DNA from: an uncultured Gammaproteobacteria bacterium
GTDB taxonomy: Bacteria; Patescibacteriota; Patescibacteriia; Magasanikbacterales; UBA922
Direction of reading: 5' to 3'
NCBI GenBank assembly: GCA_964522435.1
Contig: CAZFUL010000001.1
Span: 117,075 to 181,074, forward strand
Length of the DNA stretch: 64,000 nt
A model generated the notes under the pieces. That model made no database searches. It was not told the origin of the DNA and saw nothing but the letters and a program-made list of their open reading frames with translations. The position numbers were made by a program, and so were the translations under genes. Positions 17,394 to 27,374 of the stretch are shown in pieces; position 1 is the stretch's first letter, and every line of letters starts with the position of its first letter.

Positions 17394-17445
17394 CAATTAA
17401 CAATGAACAATTCTTTAAAATTTTTGTTAATTGCTAATTGTTAAA
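17392..17445. promoter_or_regulatory. Perfect 12-bp inverted repeat agcaattaacaa / ttgttaattgct spanning the gatA stop and the LOG start
   Basis: Seen in sequence. AT-rich TTAATTG-type repeats lie between the arms. Confidence 0.3.
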
Positions 17446-18782
17446 TGTTAATTGTCTCTATGGATAAACAATATAGCTTTGGATTAAATGAAACAGGCAA
17501 CTACCGCGAACCGTGGCAGATTTTTCGTATCATGTCTGAATTTGTGGAAGGTTACCAATTTTTAAGCACGCTCAAAAAAGAAGTGACCATATTAGGATCT
17601 GCGCGCTTTTTACCTCATCAAGAATATTACAAAGTTGCGCAAGAGTTAGGCGCACTGCTCGGAAAATCTGGCTATAACACGCTTACTGGTGGCGGACCAG
17701 GGATTATGGAAGCAGCAAACCGTGGTGCGTTTGAAGTAGGGGGAGAATCTATTGGCTTAAATATCGAACTCCCGCTTGAACAAAAACTCAGTCCTTATGT
17801 AAAAAAGTCTGTATCGTTTTCGTACTTTTTTACTCGCAAAGTCATGTTAACTTCACCCGCACATAGTTTTGTGTTTTTTCCCGGAGGCTTTGGGACCTTA
17901 GACGAATTTTTTGAAGTAGTCGACCACATGGATATTGGCAAAATGAGTGAAGTGCCCGTTATTTTGGTAGGAAAAGAATATTGGGAACCCTTGGTTGCCT
18001 TTTTAGAAGATCGCTGTTGTGCGCATGGAACAACCTCGCATACCCGTATTCAATCATGGAAAATCGTTGAAACGGCAGAAGAAGCCTTTGCCCTTATTCA
18101 AGAACATGGAAAAGAAGCAAATAATTGCGAGCTTTCTCCCGCGCGCTTTCATAGTGGAGAATATGATGTGGATTGGAAAGTATTCCGCATTATGGCAGAA
18201 CTGGTGCAAGGCTTTGAGTTTTTAACCGGATTAGTAGAAGACGTCACCGTGCTTGGGACAAAATCCATGGAGCCAACAAATCCTTTTTACGAACAGGCGT
18301 ATCAATTAGGTCGTTCTTTAGGCGAAAATGGCTATGCCGTGGTTACCGGAGGAGCAACGGGCGTTGCCGAAGCAGCAAACAAAGGAGCCATGGCGGTCGG
18401 TGGAGAATCCATTGGGATTGGTATGGAAGTAGAAGGGGAGAATCGCTTAAACGAATTTGTGAATCGTTCTATTACCTTTAAATTTCCCTTTACCCGTAAA
18501 CTTATTGTCACGGCGCCATCCAAAGCCTTTGTCTTTTTTCCTGGTGGATTTGGTACCTTGCATCAACTGTTTGAAGTATTAACCTTAATACAAACCGGCA
18601 AAATGCCTCGCGTGCCAATTATTTTATTTGGAGAAACCTATTGGCAAGGGGTTGATGACTTTATTCGCAATGTGTTGTCTGAACGCTTGCAAACCATTAA
18701 TGTAGAAGATACCAAACTCTATACTATTGTTGATTCTGTAGAAGACAGCCTTACCCTTATTAATGATTTTCGGGGGAAATAA
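17445..18782 (+). CDS. Tandem LOG-family (TIGR00730 / Rossmann-fold nucleotide-binding) protein
   Basis: Two copies of GGGPGIMEAANRGA and PGGFGTL(D/H)E motifs. 445 aa. Confidence 0.75.
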   Translation: MLIVSMDKQYSFGLNETGNYREPWQIFRIMSEFVEGYQFLSTLKKEVTILGSARFLPHQEYYKVAQELGALLGKSGYNTLTGGGPGIMEAANRGAFEVGGESIGLNIELPLEQKLSPYVKKSVSFSYFFTRKVMLTSPAHSFVFFPGGFGTLDEFFEVVDHMDIGKMSEVPVILVGKEYWEPLVAFLEDRCCAHGTTSHTRIQSWKIVETAEEAFALIQEHGKEANNCELSPARFHSGEYDVDWKVFRIMAELVQGFEFLTGLVEDVTVLGTKSMEPTNPFYEQAYQLGRSLGENGYAVVTGGATGVAEAANKGAMAVGGESIGIGMEVEGENRLNEFVNRSITFKFPFTRKLIVTAPSKAFVFFPGGFGTLHQLFEVLTLIQTGKMPRVPIILFGETYWQGVDDFIRNVLSERLQTINVEDTKLYTIVDSVEDSLTLINDFRGK

Positions 18783-18785
18783 TAT

Positions 18786-18876
18786 TGGCGGAAGGTGAGG
18801 GATTCGAACCCTCGATACCCTTTCAGGTATACCACCTTTCCAAGGTGGCGCACTCGACCAACTATGCGAACCTTCC
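18786..18876 (-). tRNA. tRNA-Ser (anticodon GGA), class II with long variable arm, CCA encoded
   Basis: Manual cloverleaf: acceptor GGAAGGT/ACCTTCC, D-stem GCA/TGC, anticodon stem CCACC/GGTGG with loop TTGGAAA, variable arm ATACC-TGAAA-GGGTAT, T-arm GAGGG-TTCGAAT-CCCTC. Confidence 0.85.
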
Positions 18877-19241
18877 GTAAGTGTGACTAAGACTATCACA
18901 AAAAGGGAGCAAAATCAACTCCAAGACAGCTGCTTTTAGGCGGTGATTTTTATTGTTGAAGAATAGGGGAGAATTTGGTAGGATGGGGGAAGGTATATTC
19001 CCTCGCAAAAGCCGTCGAGTTAGTATTCGGAGCTACTGTGTAGTCGTTAAAATGTATAATGATTTCGTATAAGAATGAGTTATCTGAAATATTCCTTTTC
19101 TTTTCCGACGATAGTCGGTTGTTTTAAAAATTTTCAAATTTCTTTTTCCAATGGGGGGTTCCTATTGGAAAAATTATTTTATAGGGGAATAAAGAGGTGT
19201 CCCTCCGTATAATCGGCGGGACGATTATCTAAAATATAAAC

Positions 19242-20048
19242 ATGATTCCACCAAACTATAAAAGCTACTTTGAAATAAACCACTCTAATATTGAACGAGT
19301 GCAAATCTTTTTAAGTAGCAAATATATTTTCACTATCGGGATTTACAAAAAGGAAATGGGATTTTACATTGATTTTCCTAAATTTAACAAGTCAAACACG
19401 ACAGTTGCAAAATATATATTGCCCAAAGGACAAAGCTATATTGAAAAACTTGATCCCACGGCAACCGAACAAAAAAATATTTGTCCGAAATTAAGTTTTC
19501 ATGAATCAGGCTGGGTACTACTATCCAAGAGCGGATTTTTCTTTGATAAAACAATATCTCGCCAAAAAACCAATGATTCAATATTTAAAAATGATGGTAC
19601 GCACGTATTTACCATATCATTGCAAAATCCTAATTTTCTTCCCGACGAACCTCCTGCGATGAAAACACGCACCCGTGATATTGCATTACCGTCTTCTCCA
19701 CTTCCTAATGCAATCAAATTCGTAGGAAATTTATGGAAAAAGAGTGATCTTCAAGAAAGTTTTAAAGAATTTGGAATGCTAAAAAATGAAACTGAGTATC
19801 CCATAATATGGCCACGCAACGATGGAAGTAATTTGGGTGATATTGTGTTCATATTAAAATTTTGCCACTTAGTAGATTCAGAACCACTTTATTTGAGTGT
19901 CCGATGTATGATTATTCCAATTATGGATAAAGAATATTCAAAAGGAACTTTATTGACGTTGATGAGTGGCTTCATTTTTGGTGATGTGATCAATACTGAA
20001 AAAGAGACTGATTTCATCAGTTTTATTGCAAAAAGAGAACGAAATTGA
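19242..20048 (+). CDS. Hypothetical protein (268 aa), first gene of the defence island
   Basis: ATG ORF with no recognisable motif. Lies between tRNA-Ser and the HTH/methyltransferase genes. Confidence 0.5.
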   Translation: MIPPNYKSYFEINHSNIERVQIFLSSKYIFTIGIYKKEMGFYIDFPKFNKSNTTVAKYILPKGQSYIEKLDPTATEQKNICPKLSFHESGWVLLSKSGFFFDKTISRQKTNDSIFKNDGTHVFTISLQNPNFLPDEPPAMKTRTRDIALPSSPLPNAIKFVGNLWKKSDLQESFKEFGMLKNETEYPIIWPRNDGSNLGDIVFILKFCHLVDSEPLYLSVRCMIIPIMDKEYSKGTLLTLMSGFIFGDVINTEKETDFISFIAKRERN

Positions 20049-20100
20049 CATAAAGTAGGCAGAAGAGTAACCTACATTAAAACATATACATTATATTGGT

Positions 20101-20310
20101 ATGCCAAATACAAAAAATACTATTGCAAAAAACATTAAACGTTTGCGAACTGAACAGCAATTATCGCAGGATCGTTTATCAAAATTAGCCGACCTTTCTT
20201 TGAATACGATTGTTACTGTTGAAAGTGGTGCGAATGAAAATCCCACAATCGATACACTAGTAAAAATTGCATCTGCTTTCGGTGTTGGTGTAGATGATTT
20301 AATGAAATGA
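20101..20310 (+). CDS. XRE-family HTH transcriptional regulator (69 aa), possibly a controller for the adjacent R-M genes
   Basis: HTH_3 pattern IKRLRTEQQLSQDRLSKLADLSLNTIVTVESG. Stop is 2 nt before the next ORF. Confidence 0.75.
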   Translation: MPNTKNTIAKNIKRLRTEQQLSQDRLSKLADLSLNTIVTVESGANENPTIDTLVKIASAFGVGVDDLMK

Positions 20311-20311
20311 T

Positions 20312-20980
20312 ATGGCCAACCAGATCATTTCAAAAAAACGTGTCACAGATCATGGTGAAGTGTTTACTTCTGAGCGAGAAGTGAATGCTATGCTGGATCT
20401 TGTAAAACAGGAAACAGAACGTATAGAATCTCGTTTTCTGGAACCTGCGTGTGGTACAGGTAATTTTTTGGATCCAATTCTTAGAAGAAAACTAGAAGTT
20501 ATAAGTAAGCGATATAAAAAAAGTCAGTTGGAATTTGAAAGAAACGGTGTCGTTACGATTGGGAGTATTTACGGTGTCGATATTTTACATGACAATGTCG
20601 TAGAGTGTAGAAACAGGTTGTTTGGTATCTTTGATTCTTGCTATACTGAATTGTATAAGAAAAAATGCACAGATGAATATCGTCGTGTTATACGTTTTAT
20701 TTTGGAGAGAAATATTTTACTTGGAGATGCACTAACACTCAAGACAGTGGGAAGTAAATCAGAGCCAATCGTATTTTCTGAGTGGTCTCTTGTGAGAGGG
20801 AGTGATATCAAACGTAGAGATTATGCCTTTGCTGAATTGATTCCAAATCAATCAAAAGAAAGTACATTATTTACTACAACACAAGTGTCCGATACAGGCT
20901 CTCCTGTATTTATACCAGAACCAAAAACTGAATTTCCTTTGACGCATTTTCTAAAATTACCGTATGAGACTACCCACTAA
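20312..20980 (+). CDS. N6-adenine methyltransferase N-terminal module only (motif X GEVFTS and motif I EPACGTGNFL, no NPPY): truncated paralog or accessory subunit
   Basis: Motifs read from the translation. Overlaps the full methyltransferase by 17 nt. Confidence 0.5.
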   Translation: MANQIISKKRVTDHGEVFTSEREVNAMLDLVKQETERIESRFLEPACGTGNFLDPILRRKLEVISKRYKKSQLEFERNGVVTIGSIYGVDILHDNVVECRNRLFGIFDSCYTELYKKKCTDEYRRVIRFILERNILLGDALTLKTVGSKSEPIVFSEWSLVRGSDIKRRDYAFAELIPNQSKESTLFTTTQVSDTGSPVFIPEPKTEFPLTHFLKLPYETTH

Positions 20981-22469
20981 CTACAATCCAGACGTACTCA
21001 CATGTTTGGCGAACTTGAGTAACGACGAGGTATTTACACCTCCTAGTTTGGTCAATGAGATTCTCGATCTTTTACCAAAAAAAATTTGGAAAAATAAACA
21101 TGCTAAATTTCTTGATCCTGTGACTAAAACAGGCGTATTTCTCAGAGAAATAGCAGCTCGATTGATTGATGGTCTTGAAAAAGAGATACCAGACAGACAA
21201 GAACGAATCAATCATATCTATACCAATCAGCTCTACGGTATTGCAATTACAGAACTCACTGCACTGCTTGCACGACGAAGTGTGTACTGCTCCAAAATAG
21301 CAAACGGAAAATACTCTATCTGTACGGAATTTACAGACGAACAAGGAAATATCCGTTTCAACAGGGTAGAGCATGAGTGGCAAGGAGAAAAATGTCGATA
21401 CTGTGGAGCAAGTAAATCAGAATATGATAGAGAAGATGCACTCGAAACACACGCCTATGAGTTTATTCATACCGATGATCCAAATAACTTGTATAACAAT
21501 ATGAAATTTGATGTCATCATTGGAAATCCACCGTATCAATTGAGTGACGCTGGACACGGTAGAAGTGCAAGTCCTATCTATCATAAGTTTATTGAGCAAG
21601 CGAAAAAGATGAATCCAAGGTATTTGACGATGATTATTCCTGCTCGTTGGTTTGCTGGTGGAAAAGGGCTTGATGAATTTCGTTCTGAAATGCTCGGTGA
21701 TAAGCGTATCCGAAGAATGGTAGACTTTGAAAATTCAAATGATGTATTTTCTGGTGTTGATATTGCTGGTGGTATTTGTTATTTCCTTTGGGATAGGGAT
21801 AATACGGGACTGTGTGAAGTAACTAATTTTATCAATGGTAAAGTAGAAAGTTCTTTGCGATATCTTGATGAGTTTCCAATTTTTATCCGTCATAGTAACG
21901 CAATTCCGATTATCAAAAAAGTGCTTGCAAAAAAAGAAAATGGTGGTAAGAATTTGAGTTCTGTGGTTTCTTCTCGAAAACCATTTGGTCTCCCCACAAA
22001 CTATCCACCAAAAAATTCTGGTGTACCTTGTTGGTTTATCCAAAAAATAGGTCTTAAATACGCAAGTAAAAAAGACGTTATCGATGATGTGGGGTTGTTG
22101 GATAAATGGAAATTGTTAATTCCTCCTGCTCCTATTGCTGGACAAACTGATTTTTCTAAACCAGTAGGCTTTTATTATGATGGAAATGTAAAAATAGCGA
22201 AACCGGGTGAGTGTTGTACTGAATCTTTTATTGTGGGTGGTGCTTTTGATACTAAAAAAGAAGTAGAATCGTTCAAAACATATTTGTTTACAAAAATTGT
22301 TCGATTTTTACTTTTACAAACAGTTGTATCCCAACATGTCACTAAAGATAAATTTATTTTTATACCAGATATCGGCAAATATGAGGGTGTTTTTACAGAT
22401 GAAATGTTATGTAAGCGATGGGGTATAACAAAAGACGAATGGAAGTTTATTGATTCACGCATTAAATAG
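20964..22469 (+). CDS. N6-adenine DNA methyltransferase, gamma-class, Eco57I-like
   Basis: Motif X EVFTPPSLVNEILDLL, motif I FLDPVTKTGVFL and motif IV NPPY (VIIGNPPYQ). C-terminal Eco57I-like region. Confidence 0.8.
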   Translation: MRLPTNYNPDVLTCLANLSNDEVFTPPSLVNEILDLLPKKIWKNKHAKFLDPVTKTGVFLREIAARLIDGLEKEIPDRQERINHIYTNQLYGIAITELTALLARRSVYCSKIANGKYSICTEFTDEQGNIRFNRVEHEWQGEKCRYCGASKSEYDREDALETHAYEFIHTDDPNNLYNNMKFDVIIGNPPYQLSDAGHGRSASPIYHKFIEQAKKMNPRYLTMIIPARWFAGGKGLDEFRSEMLGDKRIRRMVDFENSNDVFSGVDIAGGICYFLWDRDNTGLCEVTNFINGKVESSLRYLDEFPIFIRHSNAIPIIKKVLAKKENGGKNLSSVVSSRKPFGLPTNYPPKNSGVPCWFIQKIGLKYASKKDVIDDVGLLDKWKLLIPPAPIAGQTDFSKPVGFYYDGNVKIAKPGECCTESFIVGGAFDTKKEVESFKTYLFTKIVRFLLLQTVVSQHVTKDKFIFIPDIGKYEGVFTDEMLCKRWGITKDEWKFIDSRIK

Positions 22470-22477
22470 TTTTTTGT

Positions 22478-24994
22478 ATGATCAATCAAACTTTTTTCCC
22501 GCTTCGTCCAGAAGCTAAACCAACAATATATGTGTACAGATTCAAAGGTGTTAATACGCATGAAGGTCTTCTGAAAATTGGATATACTACGAGAAATGCT
22601 AAAGATCGTATCGCTGAACAGCTCACTACGAGTCGCCTTGAGCATGAAATTATTCTTGAAGAATCGGCGATGAGAAATGATGGTACTGCGTTTAGTGATC
22701 ACGATGTACATAGATATTTACGAAAAAACAATATTGAGCATGTAAATGGTGAGTGGTTCCGCTGTACGCTCAAAGATGTGAAATCTGCACTTGTAGCTAT
22801 TAAGTCCGGTGCCTTGAATGTAGAAAATAGAACACAGACTTTTGGTCTTCGCCCAGAACAAGAAAAGGCTATAGAAAAAACAATTACCTATTTCAAAAAT
22901 GTTAAAAAAGAAGGTGATAATAAAACACCACACTTCTTGTGGAATGCAAAAATGCGTTTTGGGAAAACATTTACTTCGTACCAGCTTGCAAAGAAAATGA
23001 ATTGGAAACGAGTACTCGTACTCACATTTAAGCCAGCAGTACAAAATGCGTGGGAAGAGGATCTCAAATCCCATGTTGATTTTGAAGGGTGGCAGTTTAT
23101 CTCACCAAATAGTCTCTCATACGAAGACGCTGATAAAGATAAACCACTTATTTGTTTTGGTTCATTTCAAGATTATCTGGGAAGAAACAAAAGTACAGGT
23201 GGTATTAAAACCAAAAATGAATGGGTACACACAACAAATTGGGACTGTGTCATCCTCGACGAGTACCACTATGGAGCGTGGAGAGAAAACGCAAAAGACT
23301 TGTTTGAGGCTGAAGAAAAACGTGTACAGCAAGATGAAGAGGGGGAAGGGCTTGAGTACTTTAGTGAAAGTGAAATGCCTATTACTACGGGGGCGTATCT
23401 GTATCTGTCGGGTACACCGTTCCGTGCGATTGCATCTGGTGAATTTATCGAAGAGCAAATTTTTAACTGGACATATTCAGATGAACAGCGTGCCAAAGAG
23501 CTGTGGCAAGGGGAGAATAACCCCTACGCATCACTACCTCGCATGGTGATGATGACCTATCAATTGCCCGATACTATTCGTGAAATTGCAATGGGTGGAG
23601 AGTTCAACGAGTTTGATCTCAACCTCTTTTTTTCAGCAGATGGGAAAGAAGAGCAAGCTCGCTTTACCTATGAAGATGAAGTTCAGAAATGGCTTGATCT
23701 GATTCGTGGGTCGTTTCAAGAGACAACAATTGATAACTTGAAACTTGGTGCAAAAAAACCACCACTTCCATTTTCTCATGCTCCGTTGCTGAGTGTATTG
23801 ACTCACACATTTTGGTTTTTACCGAGTGTGTCCTCTTGTTATGCGATGAAGAATCTACTCCAATCGAGACAAAACAAATTTTATAATGACTATAAAATCA
23901 TAGTAGCCGCAGGTAACAAAGCAGGGCTTGGTGCAGATGCACTCGAGCCTGTAGTCAAGGCGATGACACCTCCGCTTGAAACAAAAACAATTACACTCTC
24001 ATGTGGAAAATTAACGACGGGTGTTTCGGTAAAACCATGGACGGGTATTTTTATGTTGCGAAATTCTTCTAGTCCTGAAACATATTTTCAAGCCGCTTTT
24101 CGTGTACAGACACCATGGACGATCAAAAATCCAGACGGTAAGTCTCCTGATGAAGAAATGATACTCAAAAATGAGTGCTATGTGTTCGATTTTGCACCTG
24201 ATCGCGCGCTCCGACAGATTGCTGATTATAGTTGCCGTTTGAGTGTAGGGGACAAGAACCCAGAACAGAAAGTAGCAGAGTTTATCCATTTTTTGCCCGT
24301 TCTTGCGTATGATGGGAGTGCGATGAAACAGATTGATGCGGCTGGTATCTTGGATATGGCGATGAGTGGAACGACAGCGACACTGCTCGCTCGTCGTTGG
24401 GAAAGTGCCCTACTTGTAAACGTCGACAACTATACACTCAAACGCTTGATGGACAATGAAGATGCGATGAACGCCTTGATGAATATCGAGGGATTCCGCA
24501 GTCTCAATGCTGATATTGAAACGATTATCAACAAGTCAGAGGCTGTCGAAAAAACAAAAAAAGAAGCAAATGATAGAGAACTCACCAAAAAAGAAAAACA
24601 AGAACTCTCTGAGCAAGAAAAAGAGTATAAGATCGTGCGTAAACAGATTCAAGAGAAACTCATCAAGTTTGCTACTCGTGTGCCTGTTTTCATGTATCTG
24701 ACAGATTATCGTGAGAGAACTCTCAAAGATGTGATCACCCAATTGGAGCCTGGACTATTCAAAAAGGTCACTGGTTTAAGTGTGAAAGACTTTGAACTGC
24801 TAGTAAGTCTCAATGTGTTCAATAGTGCCCTCATGAACGATGCTGTATATAAATTTAAGCGATACGAAGACGCTAGTCTTAGTTATGCTGGTATCAGTAA
24901 GCACGAAGGAGAAAGTATTGGTCTGTACGACACTGTGATTCAACGAAGTGAGTTTGATCAGGTGTTTGAGAATACGGTAAAGTTGCAAACGTAA
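22478..24994 (+). CDS. T5orf172 (GIY-YIG-like) domain fused to ResIII / SF2 DEAH helicase (838 aa): putative restriction/translocase subunit
   Basis: N-terminus IYVYRF...GLLKIGYTTRNAKDRIAEQL...GEWF (T5orf172 hallmarks). LRPEQEKAI with Walker A FGKTFTS and motif II ILDEYHYGA. About 400-aa C-terminal region of unknown function. Confidence 0.75.
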   Translation: MINQTFFPLRPEAKPTIYVYRFKGVNTHEGLLKIGYTTRNAKDRIAEQLTTSRLEHEIILEESAMRNDGTAFSDHDVHRYLRKNNIEHVNGEWFRCTLKDVKSALVAIKSGALNVENRTQTFGLRPEQEKAIEKTITYFKNVKKEGDNKTPHFLWNAKMRFGKTFTSYQLAKKMNWKRVLVLTFKPAVQNAWEEDLKSHVDFEGWQFISPNSLSYEDADKDKPLICFGSFQDYLGRNKSTGGIKTKNEWVHTTNWDCVILDEYHYGAWRENAKDLFEAEEKRVQQDEEGEGLEYFSESEMPITTGAYLYLSGTPFRAIASGEFIEEQIFNWTYSDEQRAKELWQGENNPYASLPRMVMMTYQLPDTIREIAMGGEFNEFDLNLFFSADGKEEQARFTYEDEVQKWLDLIRGSFQETTIDNLKLGAKKPPLPFSHAPLLSVLTHTFWFLPSVSSCYAMKNLLQSRQNKFYNDYKIIVAAGNKAGLGADALEPVVKAMTPPLETKTITLSCGKLTTGVSVKPWTGIFMLRNSSSPETYFQAAFRVQTPWTIKNPDGKSPDEEMILKNECYVFDFAPDRALRQIADYSCRLSVGDKNPEQKVAEFIHFLPVLAYDGSAMKQIDAAGILDMAMSGTTATLLARRWESALLVNVDNYTLKRLMDNEDAMNALMNIEGFRSLNADIETIINKSEAVEKTKKEANDRELTKKEKQELSEQEKEYKIVRKQIQEKLIKFATRVPVFMYLTDYRERTLKDVITQLEPGLFKKVTGLSVKDFELLVSLNVFNSALMNDAVYKFKRYEDASLSYAGISKHEGESIGLYDTVIQRSEFDQVFENTVKLQT

Positions 24995-25259
24995 TACTTT
25001 GTAGAATATTTTGAAATAATCCATATTAGAGAAGCTTAAAGACATAACCGATGGTACAGAAAAAAGGGATTTAAGTGAATTACATGAGACTATCAAGCCA
25101 AAGTTCCCCAGCTATATCCCTTGGATGATGGCAGCCATTTTAACTGCTGTAATTTTTTGTATAATTTTCTTAATCTATTATTGCAACAAGTAAAATTTTC
25201 ATTACATCCGACAACAGAGACTTTGTTGTTCAATTTATTAAAATAAAGGATAAAAAATC

Positions 25260-25640
25260 TTAGCCTTTCTTGAAATCGTTTCTTCCGACAATAAGTGAAA
25301 TCAATATTGCTGCAGATAATATGAGTCGATACCATACTGTGGTGCCTACTTGTGACAGATCGAGTAGGTGTGTTACTAACCCAAGGCTTACAAGTATTAA
25401 ACCAAGTGTATAAGCCCAATGTTTTGCTTTGAGCAAAAAACAGCCGATCAAAATACCTATAACGGCGGATATAATGTTGATGATTTGGGTCAACTCATTC
25501 GCCGTAGCTTGGAGACTTTCTGGTTCTATGGATGAGGGAGAACTTGTTAGATTTGTGAACGTGACAATCAAATTAATCAATCCTGCTATCATGAAGAGGC
25601 CTGCAGCAACTTTGATAGGGGAGGAAAGAGTATTACTCAT
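25260..25640 (-). CDS. Hypothetical small polytopic membrane protein (126 aa)
   Basis: Hydrophobic segments. ATG ORF on the minus strand between the helicase gene and the mrr cassette. Confidence 0.5.
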   Translation of the reverse strand: MSNTLSSPIKVAAGLFMIAGLINLIVTFTNLTSSPSSIEPESLQATANELTQIINIISAVIGILIGCFLLKAKHWAYTLGLILVSLGLVTHLLDLSQVGTTVWYRLILSAAILISLIVGRNDFKKG

Positions 25641-25676
25641 ATGGGTATAGTTACTATCTGCATTTTTTATATATAA

Positions 25677-25765
25677 ATCATAGCAAATATAGTACGAAAC
25701 ACAAACCTTTGCTATACTTTTTTTAGTATATCCTAGTATTATGCCCCCCTCAATTCCCTACACCC
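25677..25765. repeat. Direct repeat copy 1 (about 89 bp) flanking the mrr cassette
   Basis: Near-identical to 26748-26838 with 1-2 mismatches. Contains the palindromic tatac-T8-gtata element and the first codons (MPPSIPYTL) of a truncated copy of the YgjP-like gene. Confidence 0.8.
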
Positions 25766-26653
25766 TTAAGTTTCTTCAAAAAAGTCTTCGTCTATTTCTT
25801 TTACTTCGTATTTATTTTTAACTTGTAACCCCACTCCATATTCGTGCATTAAATCAACAAGTTTTTTGCCGTCAATGAGTATTATCGAATGATGTGCCTC
25901 TCTTGCTTTGTGTATGGCAGATTCATCGAAAGAAGAAGTCGTGACAAAAACTCCTTTACTTGTATCTCCGCTCATTGCTCCTATAAAATTACGAATCTCT
26001 TTTTCTCTTATTTTATTTTCATTATAACGCTTAGCTTGGATATATATTTTTGCTAGGCCTAATTTGTCTTCGTTAATAATACCATCTATTCCTCCATCAC
26101 CACTTTTCGAAGTTTCGATAAAATCTCCGTAGCCCATCTTATTTAATAGTAGCAAAACAACTTTTTCAAAATAATAAGGGTCTATTTCTTTAAGTCTTTC
26201 GAGAAGCTCATTTTTGACTTGCTTTTCAATAGCACTAAATCCCGAGTCAATCATATCTTGCGGAGAAGCATTTTCATCTTCCAAATCTATTTCAGAATCT
26301 TTTTCTTCTTTTTTTGCTTCCCTATGCGCTTGAAAATCAGGATCGTTAATTAAATCTGATAATGTTAAATTTCCACTCTTTACAACTTTTAAACCTTTTT
26401 CCGATATTTTTACCATCGCTCTTTCTGGTTGTTCAATCATTTTTGCCTGTTTGAGATATGCTTTTCCCCAGCCAATTCTATTTAATATTAGAATGTCTCC
26501 ACTCTTCGTCTTTTTTTCTAATAATTCTTCGCTCAAATTTGAATAATATTCATCCCGAACACGCTTTCGTAATTCGTTGTAATGTAAAATTTGACCATCG
26601 CTCAGTACGTTTAATATTGGTATAAATGTTTCGTGATATTTTGGTAGATCCAT
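25766..26653 (-). CDS. mrr: Mrr-family restriction endonuclease (type IV, modification-dependent)
   Basis: N-terminal winged-helix Mrr_N and C-terminal Mrr_cat motifs GDGGIDGI...IQAKRY. 295 aa. Confidence 0.8.
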   Translation of the reverse strand: MDLPKYHETFIPILNVLSDGQILHYNELRKRVRDEYYSNLSEELLEKKTKSGDILILNRIGWGKAYLKQAKMIEQPERAMVKISEKGLKVVKSGNLTLSDLINDPDFQAHREAKKEEKDSEIDLEDENASPQDMIDSGFSAIEKQVKNELLERLKEIDPYYFEKVVLLLLNKMGYGDFIETSKSGDGGIDGIINEDKLGLAKIYIQAKRYNENKIREKEIRNFIGAMSGDTSKGVFVTTSSFDESAIHKAREAHHSIILIDGKKLVDLMHEYGVGLQVKNKYEVKEIDEDFFEET

Positions 26654-26747
26654 ATTTTTGAGTTAATTTATCAATATTTTGCTTTTTTAAAAAATTTTTA
26701 TCATAAAAAAAGCGTATTTAATATAACTTACTTTTACCCAACCTTAT

Positions 26748-26838
26748 AAATCATAGCAAATATAGTACGAAACACAAACCTTTGCTATACTTTTTTTAGT
26801 ATATCCTAGTATTATGCCCCCCTTAATTCCCTACACCC
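26748..26838. repeat. Direct repeat copy 2, carrying the promoter and start of the YgjP-like gene
   Basis: See copy 1. The ATG of ORF 26814 lies inside the repeat. Confidence 0.8.
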
Positions 26839-27374
26839 TGAAAAAAAACGCTAAGGCTAAGTACCTGCGTATTGTTATTAATAGGGATGCCACTGTTTCT
26901 GTGGTGGCGCCAACACGGGTGAGCATGAAAGAAATAGAACAATTTATTGCAGATAAAACACTGTGGATACAAAAGCACGTGAGAGCGTTTCAAAAAAAGA
27001 AAGAAGCCGTAACCCCCGTACTTCCTGTAGGGTTTTCTCGTACAGACTACCATTCCTGCGTGGCACGAGCCAGAAAATTAGTAAAAGATCGCTTGGCACA
27101 TTTTAATGCTATCTATCAATGTCATTTTGCTCGGGTGAGTATAAAAAAACAAAGCACGGTGTGGGGGAGTTGCTCGGCAAAAAAGAATTTGAATTTTAAT
27201 TATAAAATAGTCTTATTACCCCCACATTTAGCGGATTATATTATTGTGCATGAACTCTGTCATTTGAAAGAAATGAACCATGGCAAACAATTTTGGTTGT
27301 TGGTAGCAAAAACAATACCCGAACATAAACAATATAGAAAAGAATTAGTGGCCTATGAAAGATATTTTTCTTAA
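26814..27374 (+). CDS. DUF45 / YgjP-like metal-dependent hydrolase (HExxH)
   Basis: HELCHLKEMNH zinc-binding motif near the C-terminus. 186 aa. Confidence 0.7.
   Translation: MPPLIPYTLKKNAKAKYLRIVINRDATVSVVAPTRVSMKEIEQFIADKTLWIQKHVRAFQKKKEAVTPVLPVGFSRTDYHSCVARARKLVKDRLAHFNAIYQCHFARVSIKKQSTVWGSCSAKKNLNFNYKIVLLPPHLADYIIVHELCHLKEMNHGKQFWLLVAKTIPEHKQYRKELVAYERYFS

Follow-up and report, generated by a model that had tools for sequence, protein, structure and literature searches.

This work indicates, with a probability that we put at about 0.8, that the open reading frame (ORF) at 22478..24994 (+ strand) of the DNA analysed here, a 64,000-nt stretch of contig CAZFUL010000001.1 hereafter called the window, encodes the restriction subunit (R) of a three-gene restriction-modification (R-M) system of the DrdVI family, for which we propose a translocate-and-cut mechanism. 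The ORF begins with ATG and, its stop included, specifies 838 amino acids (aa), exactly as an earlier note on this DNA had claimed; what that note missed is that R comes third in a conserved operon that includes methyltransferase genes. Indeed, R is preceded on the same strand by M1 (20312..20980, +), which encodes a 222-aa small ‘half’ methyltransferase homologous to M1.DrdVI, and by M2 (20964..22469, +), whose 501-aa product, homologous to M2.DrdVI, is an N6-adenine methyltransferase of the Eco57I family bearing a target-recognition domain (TRD) in its C-terminal part. M2 starts 17 nt before the end of M1, and a gap of 8 nt separates M2 from R.

When annotated plasmids were searched by tblastn, the same three-gene cassette was found on pDrdVI (CP031164) of Deinococcus wulumuqiensis NEB 479, where it encodes proteins of 212 aa (‘DNA methyltransferase’), 539 aa (with an Eco57I domain) and 851 aa (‘DEAD/DEAH box helicase family protein’). 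Identity to these proteins amounted to 56.4% over 97% of the length for R, 47% over the full length for M2 (E-value 2e-167) and 41% for M1 (E-value 4e-50). Because the same cassette lies on pDrdVI and the literature describes the family, the window locus is a new member of a known family, a further copy of a type already catalogued in REBASE and filed there as ‘Type IIG’. Cloned M1 and M2 of MaeIV, from Methanococcus aeolicus, place N6-methyladenine (m6A) on GCACY. M1-2.DrdVI, cloned in Escherichia coli, methylates GCAGCC, with m6A as the product, and is labelled ‘IIG’ (PMC6430315). Literature on the DrdVI type refers to ‘split methylase/RM genes’ and calls R, in which it notes a GIY-YIG domain, ‘a fused translocase and REase’. 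Type IIG-like systems in which a single methyltransferase with a TRD is combined with a translocase and a GIY-YIG nuclease had also been described already (PMC2731913, PMC4752239, PMC3553950).

The cassette is widespread. A scan of one genome per species found a relative of R in at least 595 species, and more than 8000 database clusters match R. Our locus statistics concern the best 80 of these at least 595 matches, which are 72-78% identical to R and so biased to close relatives; they span Bacteroidota, Verrucomicrobiota, Planctomycetota, Chloroflexota, Cyanobacteria, Proteobacteria, Actinobacteria and phyla of the candidate phyla radiation (CPR), with Thermoplasmata and Woesearchaeota as archaeal hosts. 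When the window neighbours were compared with these 80 loci by tblastn, 72 loci proved to have M2 and 63 to have M1, the gene order M1-M2-R being kept throughout; where M1 or M2 is lacking, the contig is mostly truncated. About 60 of the 80 thus have the cassette, and no other window neighbour was conserved in them. Across phyla and archaea, the median identity between pairs of R proteins is 76% (minimum 69%), and the GC content of their genes (33-61%) tracks that of the host locus (r 0.93), which points to very strong purifying selection, an unusual conservation for a restriction subunit. The window copy retains every invariant residue of R, M1 and M2, and its lengths are typical of the family, with 222 aa for M1 (mostly 214-245, two being longer), 501 aa for M2 (497-529) and 838 aa for R (mostly 827-912, with extremes of 791 and 973).

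Some loci of the family are rearranged or decayed. In three of them (L016, L037 and L073), a long R frame of 808-853 aa persists, while M1 and M2 are deleted, interrupted or reduced to fragments; in L016, the 808-aa frame begins after about 80 nt of the matched region, and a DDE transposase occupies the place of the methyltransferase genes in L037. By analogy with HsdR of Type I systems, such loci would fit an R that is harmless, being unable to find DNA without its methyltransferase and TRD module. Inserts of 1-3 kb separate M2 from R at other loci (L007, L013, L022, L024, L026, L030, L033-L035, L040, L045, L047, L053, L061, L076 and L080) as well as in L073. They carry a Bro-N gene (confirmed by Pfam in L073) and, as judged by eye, RhuM-like, DUF1016/YhcG-like and GxxExxY genes together with PIN and other toxin-antitoxin pairs, all of them kinds of genes known to interrupt Type I R-M operons. 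Close relatives of R (59-75% identity) were also present on eight viral or proviral contigs (L083-L090) among 2.9 million IMG/VR contigs; relative to its frequency in cellular genomes, the R family is rare among viral sequences.

From a structural point of view, R comprises four parts in an AlphaFold2 model computed from an alignment of 58 relatives sharing 30-80% identity with the query (mean predicted local distance difference test, pLDDT, 81; predicted template modelling score, 0.77), namely an N-terminal domain, two RecA-like lobes and a mostly helical C-terminal domain. The N-terminal part, aa ~15-110 (22520..22807, +), is identified by Pfam, alignment and predicted topology as a putative nuclease domain of the T5orf172 type, within the GIY-YIG superfamily. 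The Pfam profile T5orf172 (PF10544) matches aa 17-105 through its positions 3-97 of 101, with 35.8 bits against a cut-off of 20 (E-value 1.2e-8), MUG113 (PF13455) matches with 36 bits against a cut-off of 22.3, and T5orf172-like PHROG families match with E-values of 9e-6 to 6e-5. Residues Y18, K33, G35, T37, R44 and E92 are invariant or nearly so in the 58-sequence alignment, K33, G35 and T37 forming part of the ‘KIGxT’ strand, and Y18, K33, R44, D74 and E92 are invariant in an alignment of the domain only (27-52% identity). The predicted topology, beta-beta-alpha-beta-alpha with a pLDDT of 84-93, is compatible with GIY-YIG; this domain is also the least conserved part of R (column conservation 0.64-0.79). 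T5orf172 is a proven nuclease fold in Gp88/Odn of phage ICP1, which retains the catalytic Arg and Glu (PMC8263062), and by analogy with this protein Y18 (GIY strand), R44 (first helix) and E92 are putative catalytic residues of R.

The N-terminal domain is followed by a two-lobe ATPase motor of helicase superfamily 2 (SF2), aa ~120-590 (22835..24247, +). Pfam ResIII (PF04851) matches aa 123-279 with 36.5 bits against a cut-off of 22.5, and the two RecA-like lobes carry the Q motif (LRPEQ) and motifs I (Walker A, 22946-22978), II (DExH, here DEYH, 23258-23269), III (LSGTPF, 23405-23422), V (24008-24031) and VI (24083-24115). In the 58-sequence alignment, Q128, K158, G162, K163, D261, E262, H264, S311, G312, T313, Q538 and R542 are invariant or nearly so. 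A disordered acidic loop is predicted at aa 269-293 of the first lobe, and the second lobe, aa ~430-590, contains motif V (KLTTGVSV, aa 511-518) and motif VI (YFQAAFRVQTP, aa 536-546), in which Q538 and R542 are invariant. Match lists obtained in structure searches with the whole-chain model are dominated by the motor: Foldseek ranks SNF2-type remodelers, ZorD, SauUSI and LlaBIII, and the figures in our comparison table are 21.6 for the Type I HsdR fragment 3h1t, 20.1 for XPB, 19.3 for Ino80, 18.4 for SauUSI, 17.6 for EcoR124I HsdR, 17.0 for ZorD, 15.5 for LlaBIII and 15.0 for EcoP15I Res. Because of this ranking of fold matches, the motor looks like a dsDNA (double-stranded DNA) translocase of the HsdR/SNF2 kind, and in the model it does not appear specifically close to any single class of restriction enzyme. 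Sequence searches of the PDB with whole R, the 58-sequence R profile, M1, M2 and a T5orf172-domain profile returned nothing meaningful, the matches being limited to RapA/XPB around the DExH box and to spurious NAP1, Mfa2 and S16; NCBIfam holds no model for R.

These results bear directly on the earlier note, which had read R as an N-terminal T5orf172 domain fused to an SF2 helicase. The motif strings that it quoted are all found in R (IYVYRF, aa 17-22; GLLKIGYTTRNAKDRIAEQL, aa 30-49; GEWF, aa 91-94; LRPEQEKAI, aa 124-132; the Walker A motif, AKMRFGKTFTS in full, aa 157-167; DEYH, aa 261-264). The T5orf172 assignment stands, with Pfam matches above curated cut-offs and Y18, R44 and E92 invariant: residues 1-120 do match T5orf172/GIY-YIG at the profile level, the lack of such a match being what the note had named as evidence against itself. 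The fusion to an SF2 DExH ATPase is borne out by Pfam, the conserved motor residues and the fold matches. The note had found no motif in the C-terminal ~400 aa, which holds for aa ~595-838 and fails for aa ~430-590, where the second RecA-like lobe lies with motifs V and VI. Its suggestion that the C-terminus might recognise the target did not survive: this region is among the most conserved of R, a sequence-specific TRD is expected to vary, and the variable TRD of the system lies in M2.

The C-terminal domain, aa ~595-838 (24260..24991, +), is mostly helical (pLDDT 65-85), with a column conservation of 0.78-0.96 up to aa 820, and had no sequence match to a family or solved structure in Pfam, the PDB or PHROGs. 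Its most plausible role was suggested by relatives in which R and M2 form a single chain, found in a search of 1.84 billion cluster representatives. These proteins have 1193-1464 aa and are 30-36% identical to R; Pfam detected ResIII and Eco57I in all six that were analysed and T5orf172 in four. In these proteins, R aa 10-830 corresponds to residues 7-893 and M2 aa 10-501 follows directly, at residues 879-1365. Similarly, the PADLOC profile REase_MTase_IIG (PDLC03626, 1359 positions) aligns with R at 154-801 (E-value 8e-33) and with M2 at 863-1315. Since the single-chain relatives place the methyltransferase directly after it, aa ~595-838 may be a coupler or methyltransferase-docking domain. 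These relatives share with Type ISP enzymes the order nuclease-motor-linker-methyltransferase-TRD, but have a nuclease of the GIY-YIG type rather than the Mrr type.

One single-chain enzyme, of 1445 aa, is encoded on the Enterococcus faecium plasmid pAT02-a (L082, 5232-10308) and is preceded by a 248-aa M1 homologue (35% identity, E-value 7e-33). The retention of M1 upstream of a fusion of R and M2 suggests that M1 is indispensable. As a separate observation, this enzyme and its own M1 gene adjoin the resistance gene optrA. Relatives of R occur on about 32 Enterococcus and nine Lactococcus plasmids, and the Lactococcus matches may include Type ISP enzymes.

The two methyltransferases display a reciprocal pattern of motif loss. 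M1 has the canonical S-adenosylmethionine (SAM)-binding motifs X (EVFTSEREV), I (FLEPACGTGNFL), II (IYGVDIL) and III (NILLGDAL), with PIVFSEWS in place of NPPY at the catalytic-loop position. Motifs X, I (FLEPACGxGNFL), II (YG[IV]D[IL]) and III (GDAL) are invariant family-wide, and so is PI[VI]FSEWS in the place of NPPY; M1 homologues end about 60 aa further on and are always stand-alone proteins of about 220-230 aa. M1 residues 16-91 share 34% identity over 77 aa with M2 residues 22-95 (E-value 4e-7), M1 being a shortened paralogue that corresponds to the N-terminal half of M2. An AlphaFold2 model of M1 built with database homologues (pLDDT 75) gave weak Foldseek matches (all with E-values above 0.02), exclusively to gamma-class m6A methyltransferases such as MmeI, CamA, BsaXI and LlaGI, which is consistent with a partial methyltransferase fold and is no proof of it. 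M2 matches Pfam Eco57I (PF07669, E-value 3.6e-42) and PADLOC MTase_II (E-value 3.9e-44), and its catalytic motif IV, FDVIIGNPPY (aa 182-191), belongs to a family-wide invariant FDVI[IV]GNPPYQ. Its motif I is atypical (FLDPVTKTGVFL; FLDPxxK[ST]GVF in the family), an invariant Lys replacing the usual first Gly, and its motif II (G[IL]AIT) has no acidic residue at the usual place. The DrdVI proteins show the same reciprocal pattern, and so do the single-chain enzymes in their methyltransferase parts; this apparent reciprocal degeneration fits the REBASE label ‘split methylase’ and suggests that M1 supplies or completes cofactor binding for M2.

The specificity of the whole system probably resides in M2. 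Its aa ~281-480 (21804..22403, +) have a median pairwise identity of 34% (range 22-100%) versus 69% for the N-terminal 280 aa, and a column conservation of 0.34-0.58 versus 0.75-0.90 in aa 1-280. We infer that this region, the sole hypervariable one in the cassette, is the TRD, and that this single TRD would direct cleavage as well. It should also be noted that an insertion between motifs II and IV of M2 (aa 137-169, window 21372-21470) contains H137, C144, C147 and H169, invariant in 62 of 62 members; the pattern, …H-x6-C-x-x-C…H-x5-H…, is possibly a zinc-binding element.

In the mechanism that we propose, M1 and M2 would form an active methyltransferase and recognition module, which would bind an asymmetric 5-6 bp site through the TRD of M2 and methylate one strand of it (hemimethylation). 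R would dock on M1/M2 through aa 595-838, an unmodified site would license ATP hydrolysis and dsDNA translocation by its motor, and the T5orf172/GIY-YIG domain would nick or cut, probably away from the site, upon stalling or upon convergence of two enzymes. Only one strand of GCAGCC has an adenine, and replication therefore yields one daughter duplex with fully unmodified sites; single-strand marking applies likewise to half of all GCACY sites. With such daughter sites, self/non-self discrimination must use inter-site communication in a particular relative orientation, a logic well established for Type III and Type ISP enzymes; because such communication is needed, the motor would be part of the enzyme. 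A bolder proposal, which we offer tentatively and hold to be rather doubtful, is that the DrdVI family constitutes a distinct ATP-dependent R-M class and not a variant of Type IIG, with an obligate heteromeric M1/M2 made of reciprocally degenerate paralogues and with M1 as a SAM-dependent licence for the motor of R.

Several points weigh against this translocate-and-cut reading. Every step after methylation is inference on our part, and a survey of the available literature turned up no data on restriction, ATPase activity, translocation or cleavage for any DrdVI-family member. The GIY-YIG fold proposed for aa 15-110 is based on Pfam profiles and predicted topology, and a profile of the isolated T5orf172 domain found no solved structure by sequence in the PDB. 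Moreover, T5orf172 domains can become domesticated, non-cutting DNA binders, the T5orf172 protein CapR, of a phage satellite, being such a case. A domesticated endonuclease in a phage satellite is described in the literature (PMC8096241). Finally, the related three-gene system DnmA-YeeB-YeeC of Bacillus subtilis displayed neither restriction nor anti-phage activity (PMC9973331).

Among the alternatives, the one that survives best keeps the same system and changes its long-range mechanism, the motor acting not by Type ISP-like collision but by ATP-switched sliding, as in Type III EcoP15I, or by site-bound loop extrusion, in a Type I-like manner. We regard this as possible, though not probable: the single-chain relatives show the domain order of Type ISP enzymes, the methyltransferase is a gamma-class Eco57I-like enzyme with a C-terminal TRD and not a Type III Mod, and there is no separate HsdS-like specificity subunit. 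A less credible alternative, which we judge improbable, is that the window copy or the whole family is a restriction-inactive relic, in which M1/M2 would act as an orphan epigenetic methyltransferase beside a non-functional R, as proposed for DnmA-YeeB-YeeC. The lack of restriction or anti-phage effect in this analogous cluster, the fragmented DrdVI-like systems of Bibersteinia (PMC4996451) and the three decayed loci described above speak for it. By contrast, the three window ORFs are full length and keep all invariant catalytic residues, the very strong purifying selection that R appears to undergo is difficult to reconcile with such a relic, and Vibrio homologues of the YeeA/B/C type are cited as protecting against phages (PMC9973331).

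A BREX-like, non-cleaving interference, in which a degenerate T5orf172 domain would serve to bind DNA and the motor to displace phage replication or block it, seems very improbable. The domestication of T5orf172 domains would agree with it, and BREX and its kin rely on a gamma-class methyltransferase that modifies a single strand, and do not cleave DNA (PMC4752239). However, Y18, R44 and E92 do not vary among sequences sharing 27-80% identity with the query, and PADLOC matched no BREX, DISARM or Hma component. Least credible of all is a stand-alone, methylation-independent helicase-nuclease acting as defence or abortive-infection effector with its C-terminus as its own sensor or recognition domain, the model implicit in the earlier note: T5orf172 and SF2 domains do occur in several defence-island proteins, the N-terminus of R weakly matches the PADLOC candidate PDC-S57 (E-value 0.0017) and the locus sits in a small island beside tRNA-Ser with an Mrr-type enzyme nearby, yet R is linked to M1 and M2 across phyla, is covalently fused to M2 in relatives and has a conserved C-terminus, variability being confined to M2. 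The defence role that the earlier note implied for R was right in a broad sense, and a translocating and cutting restriction subunit guided by M1/M2 remains the reading that we favour.

Regarding the surroundings of the cassette, a 69-aa protein of the HTH_3 family (helix-turn-helix, HTH, of the Cro/C1 type; 20101..20310, +; Pfam E-value 1.6e-11) is encoded immediately upstream, its stop ending one base before the start of M1. It may be the controller protein of the window copy; a homologue was present in one of the 80 related loci, on the opposite strand, and the gene is not part of the conserved cassette. About 25 nt upstream of its start at 20101, an inverted repeat with 5-bp arms, GTAGG-N11-CCTAC (20055-20075, +), could be a candidate operator for a controller protein and could equally be due to chance. 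A scan for promoters and terminators in 18800-26800 found nothing above the shuffled expectation. The stretch 18900-26700 has a GC content of 36.5%, versus 40.5% for the whole window, and this low-GC stretch starts at a tRNA-Ser(GGA) gene (18786-18876, -) directly upstream of the cassette region; it looks like a small genomic island inserted beside the tRNA, in which no integrase was seen. Between the tRNA and HTH genes lies a 268-aa ORF (19242-20048, +), which is not conserved beside the cassette elsewhere and had no match in Pfam, PADLOC, NCBIfam or PHROGs.

Downstream, a gene for an Mrr-family Type IV (modification-dependent) restriction enzyme (25766-26653, -; Mrr_N and Mrr_cat domains; PADLOC mREase_IV, E-value 4.6e-55) is convergent with the DrdVI-type cassette, so that two restriction systems are adjacent. 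A DUF7144 small membrane protein without PHROGs match is encoded between R and Mrr (25260-25640, -), and a YgjP-like metallopeptidase, of a family often linked to Type I R-M operons, just past Mrr (26814-27374, +). On the other side, just before the tRNA, a 445-aa protein with two domains of the SLOG type (17445-18782, +; Lysine_decarbox/LOG and LDcluster4; PADLOC PsyrA, E-value 1.2e-13, and ShosA) may either have a housekeeping function, as a LOG-family enzyme, or be a SLOG protein related to defence.

This R-M family is catalogued and very common, with its at least 595 species of bacteria and archaea, yet its restriction mechanism is unpublished in the literature that we found. If the proposed mechanism is true, the family would supply the first characterised restriction enzyme that depends on ATP, translocates and uses a GIY-YIG nuclease for cutting. 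M1/M2 is an unusual split or reciprocally degenerate methyltransferase pair. NCBI gives members generic names (‘GIY-YIG nuclease family protein’, ‘DEAD/DEAH box helicase family protein’), and in PADLOC the family is detected solely via the fused ‘Type IIG’ profile; a correct label avoids counting R as a ‘novel helicase-nuclease defence gene’ in screens of defence islands. Methylation by the DrdVI family having already been demonstrated, its restriction mechanism and odd M1/M2 pair deserve biochemical study.

Compared with known systems, the window cassette is closest to DrdVI and MaeIV, which have the same genes in the same order (small M1, Eco57I-type M2, and R with GIY-YIG and translocase domains). 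It differs from DrdVI in its TRD, and so presumably in its recognition sequence, and in being chromosomal, beside tRNA-Ser and preceded by an HTH gene; its R belongs to a populous subfamily, the members of which are about 72-80% identical to each other. Type ISP enzymes such as LlaGI and LlaBIII are single polypeptides with an Mrr-type PD-(D/E)xK nuclease, whereas the window encodes a T5orf172/GIY-YIG nuclease and three polypeptides in a permuted gene order; they have no counterpart of M1 and no sequence-level similarity to R. Membership of Type ISP was thus rejected, because nuclease family and subunit structure differ.

OspHL35III and DnmA(YeeA)-YeeB-YeeC likewise combine in one operon a single-TRD m6A methyltransferase, an SF2 translocase and a GIY-YIG/T5orf172 nuclease (PMC2731913, PMC4752239, PMC9973331). 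In these systems, motor and nuclease are separate proteins encoded downstream of a full-length MmeI-like methyltransferase, whereas in the window, nuclease and motor are fused, the Eco57I-type methyltransferase is present as M1 and M2, and the methyltransferase genes come first; the comparison was made by architecture, and it was on architecture that a YeeB/YeeC-type system was rejected. Membership of Hma, DISARM, BREX or MADS was also rejected, PADLOC giving no match of R to any of them and weak, methyltransferase-level matches to mad2/PglX only. HsdR of Type I systems (EcoR124I; the Vibrio vulnificus fragment 3h1t) has a PD-(D/E)xK nuclease, unlike the GIY-YIG domain of R, and the cassette has no HsdS, a single TRD for an asymmetric site and no sequence similarity to HsdR beyond the SF2 motifs. 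As in the Type III enzyme EcoP15I (Mod/Res), the motor-nuclease gene of the cassette is preceded by a methyltransferase gene, and the two would have in common asymmetric sites, hemimethylation and the need for inter-site communication. Classical Type IIG enzymes of the MmeI kind, finally, are ATP-independent and motorless and cut at a fixed distance, whereas R of the window possesses a complete SF2 ATPase with invariant motifs.

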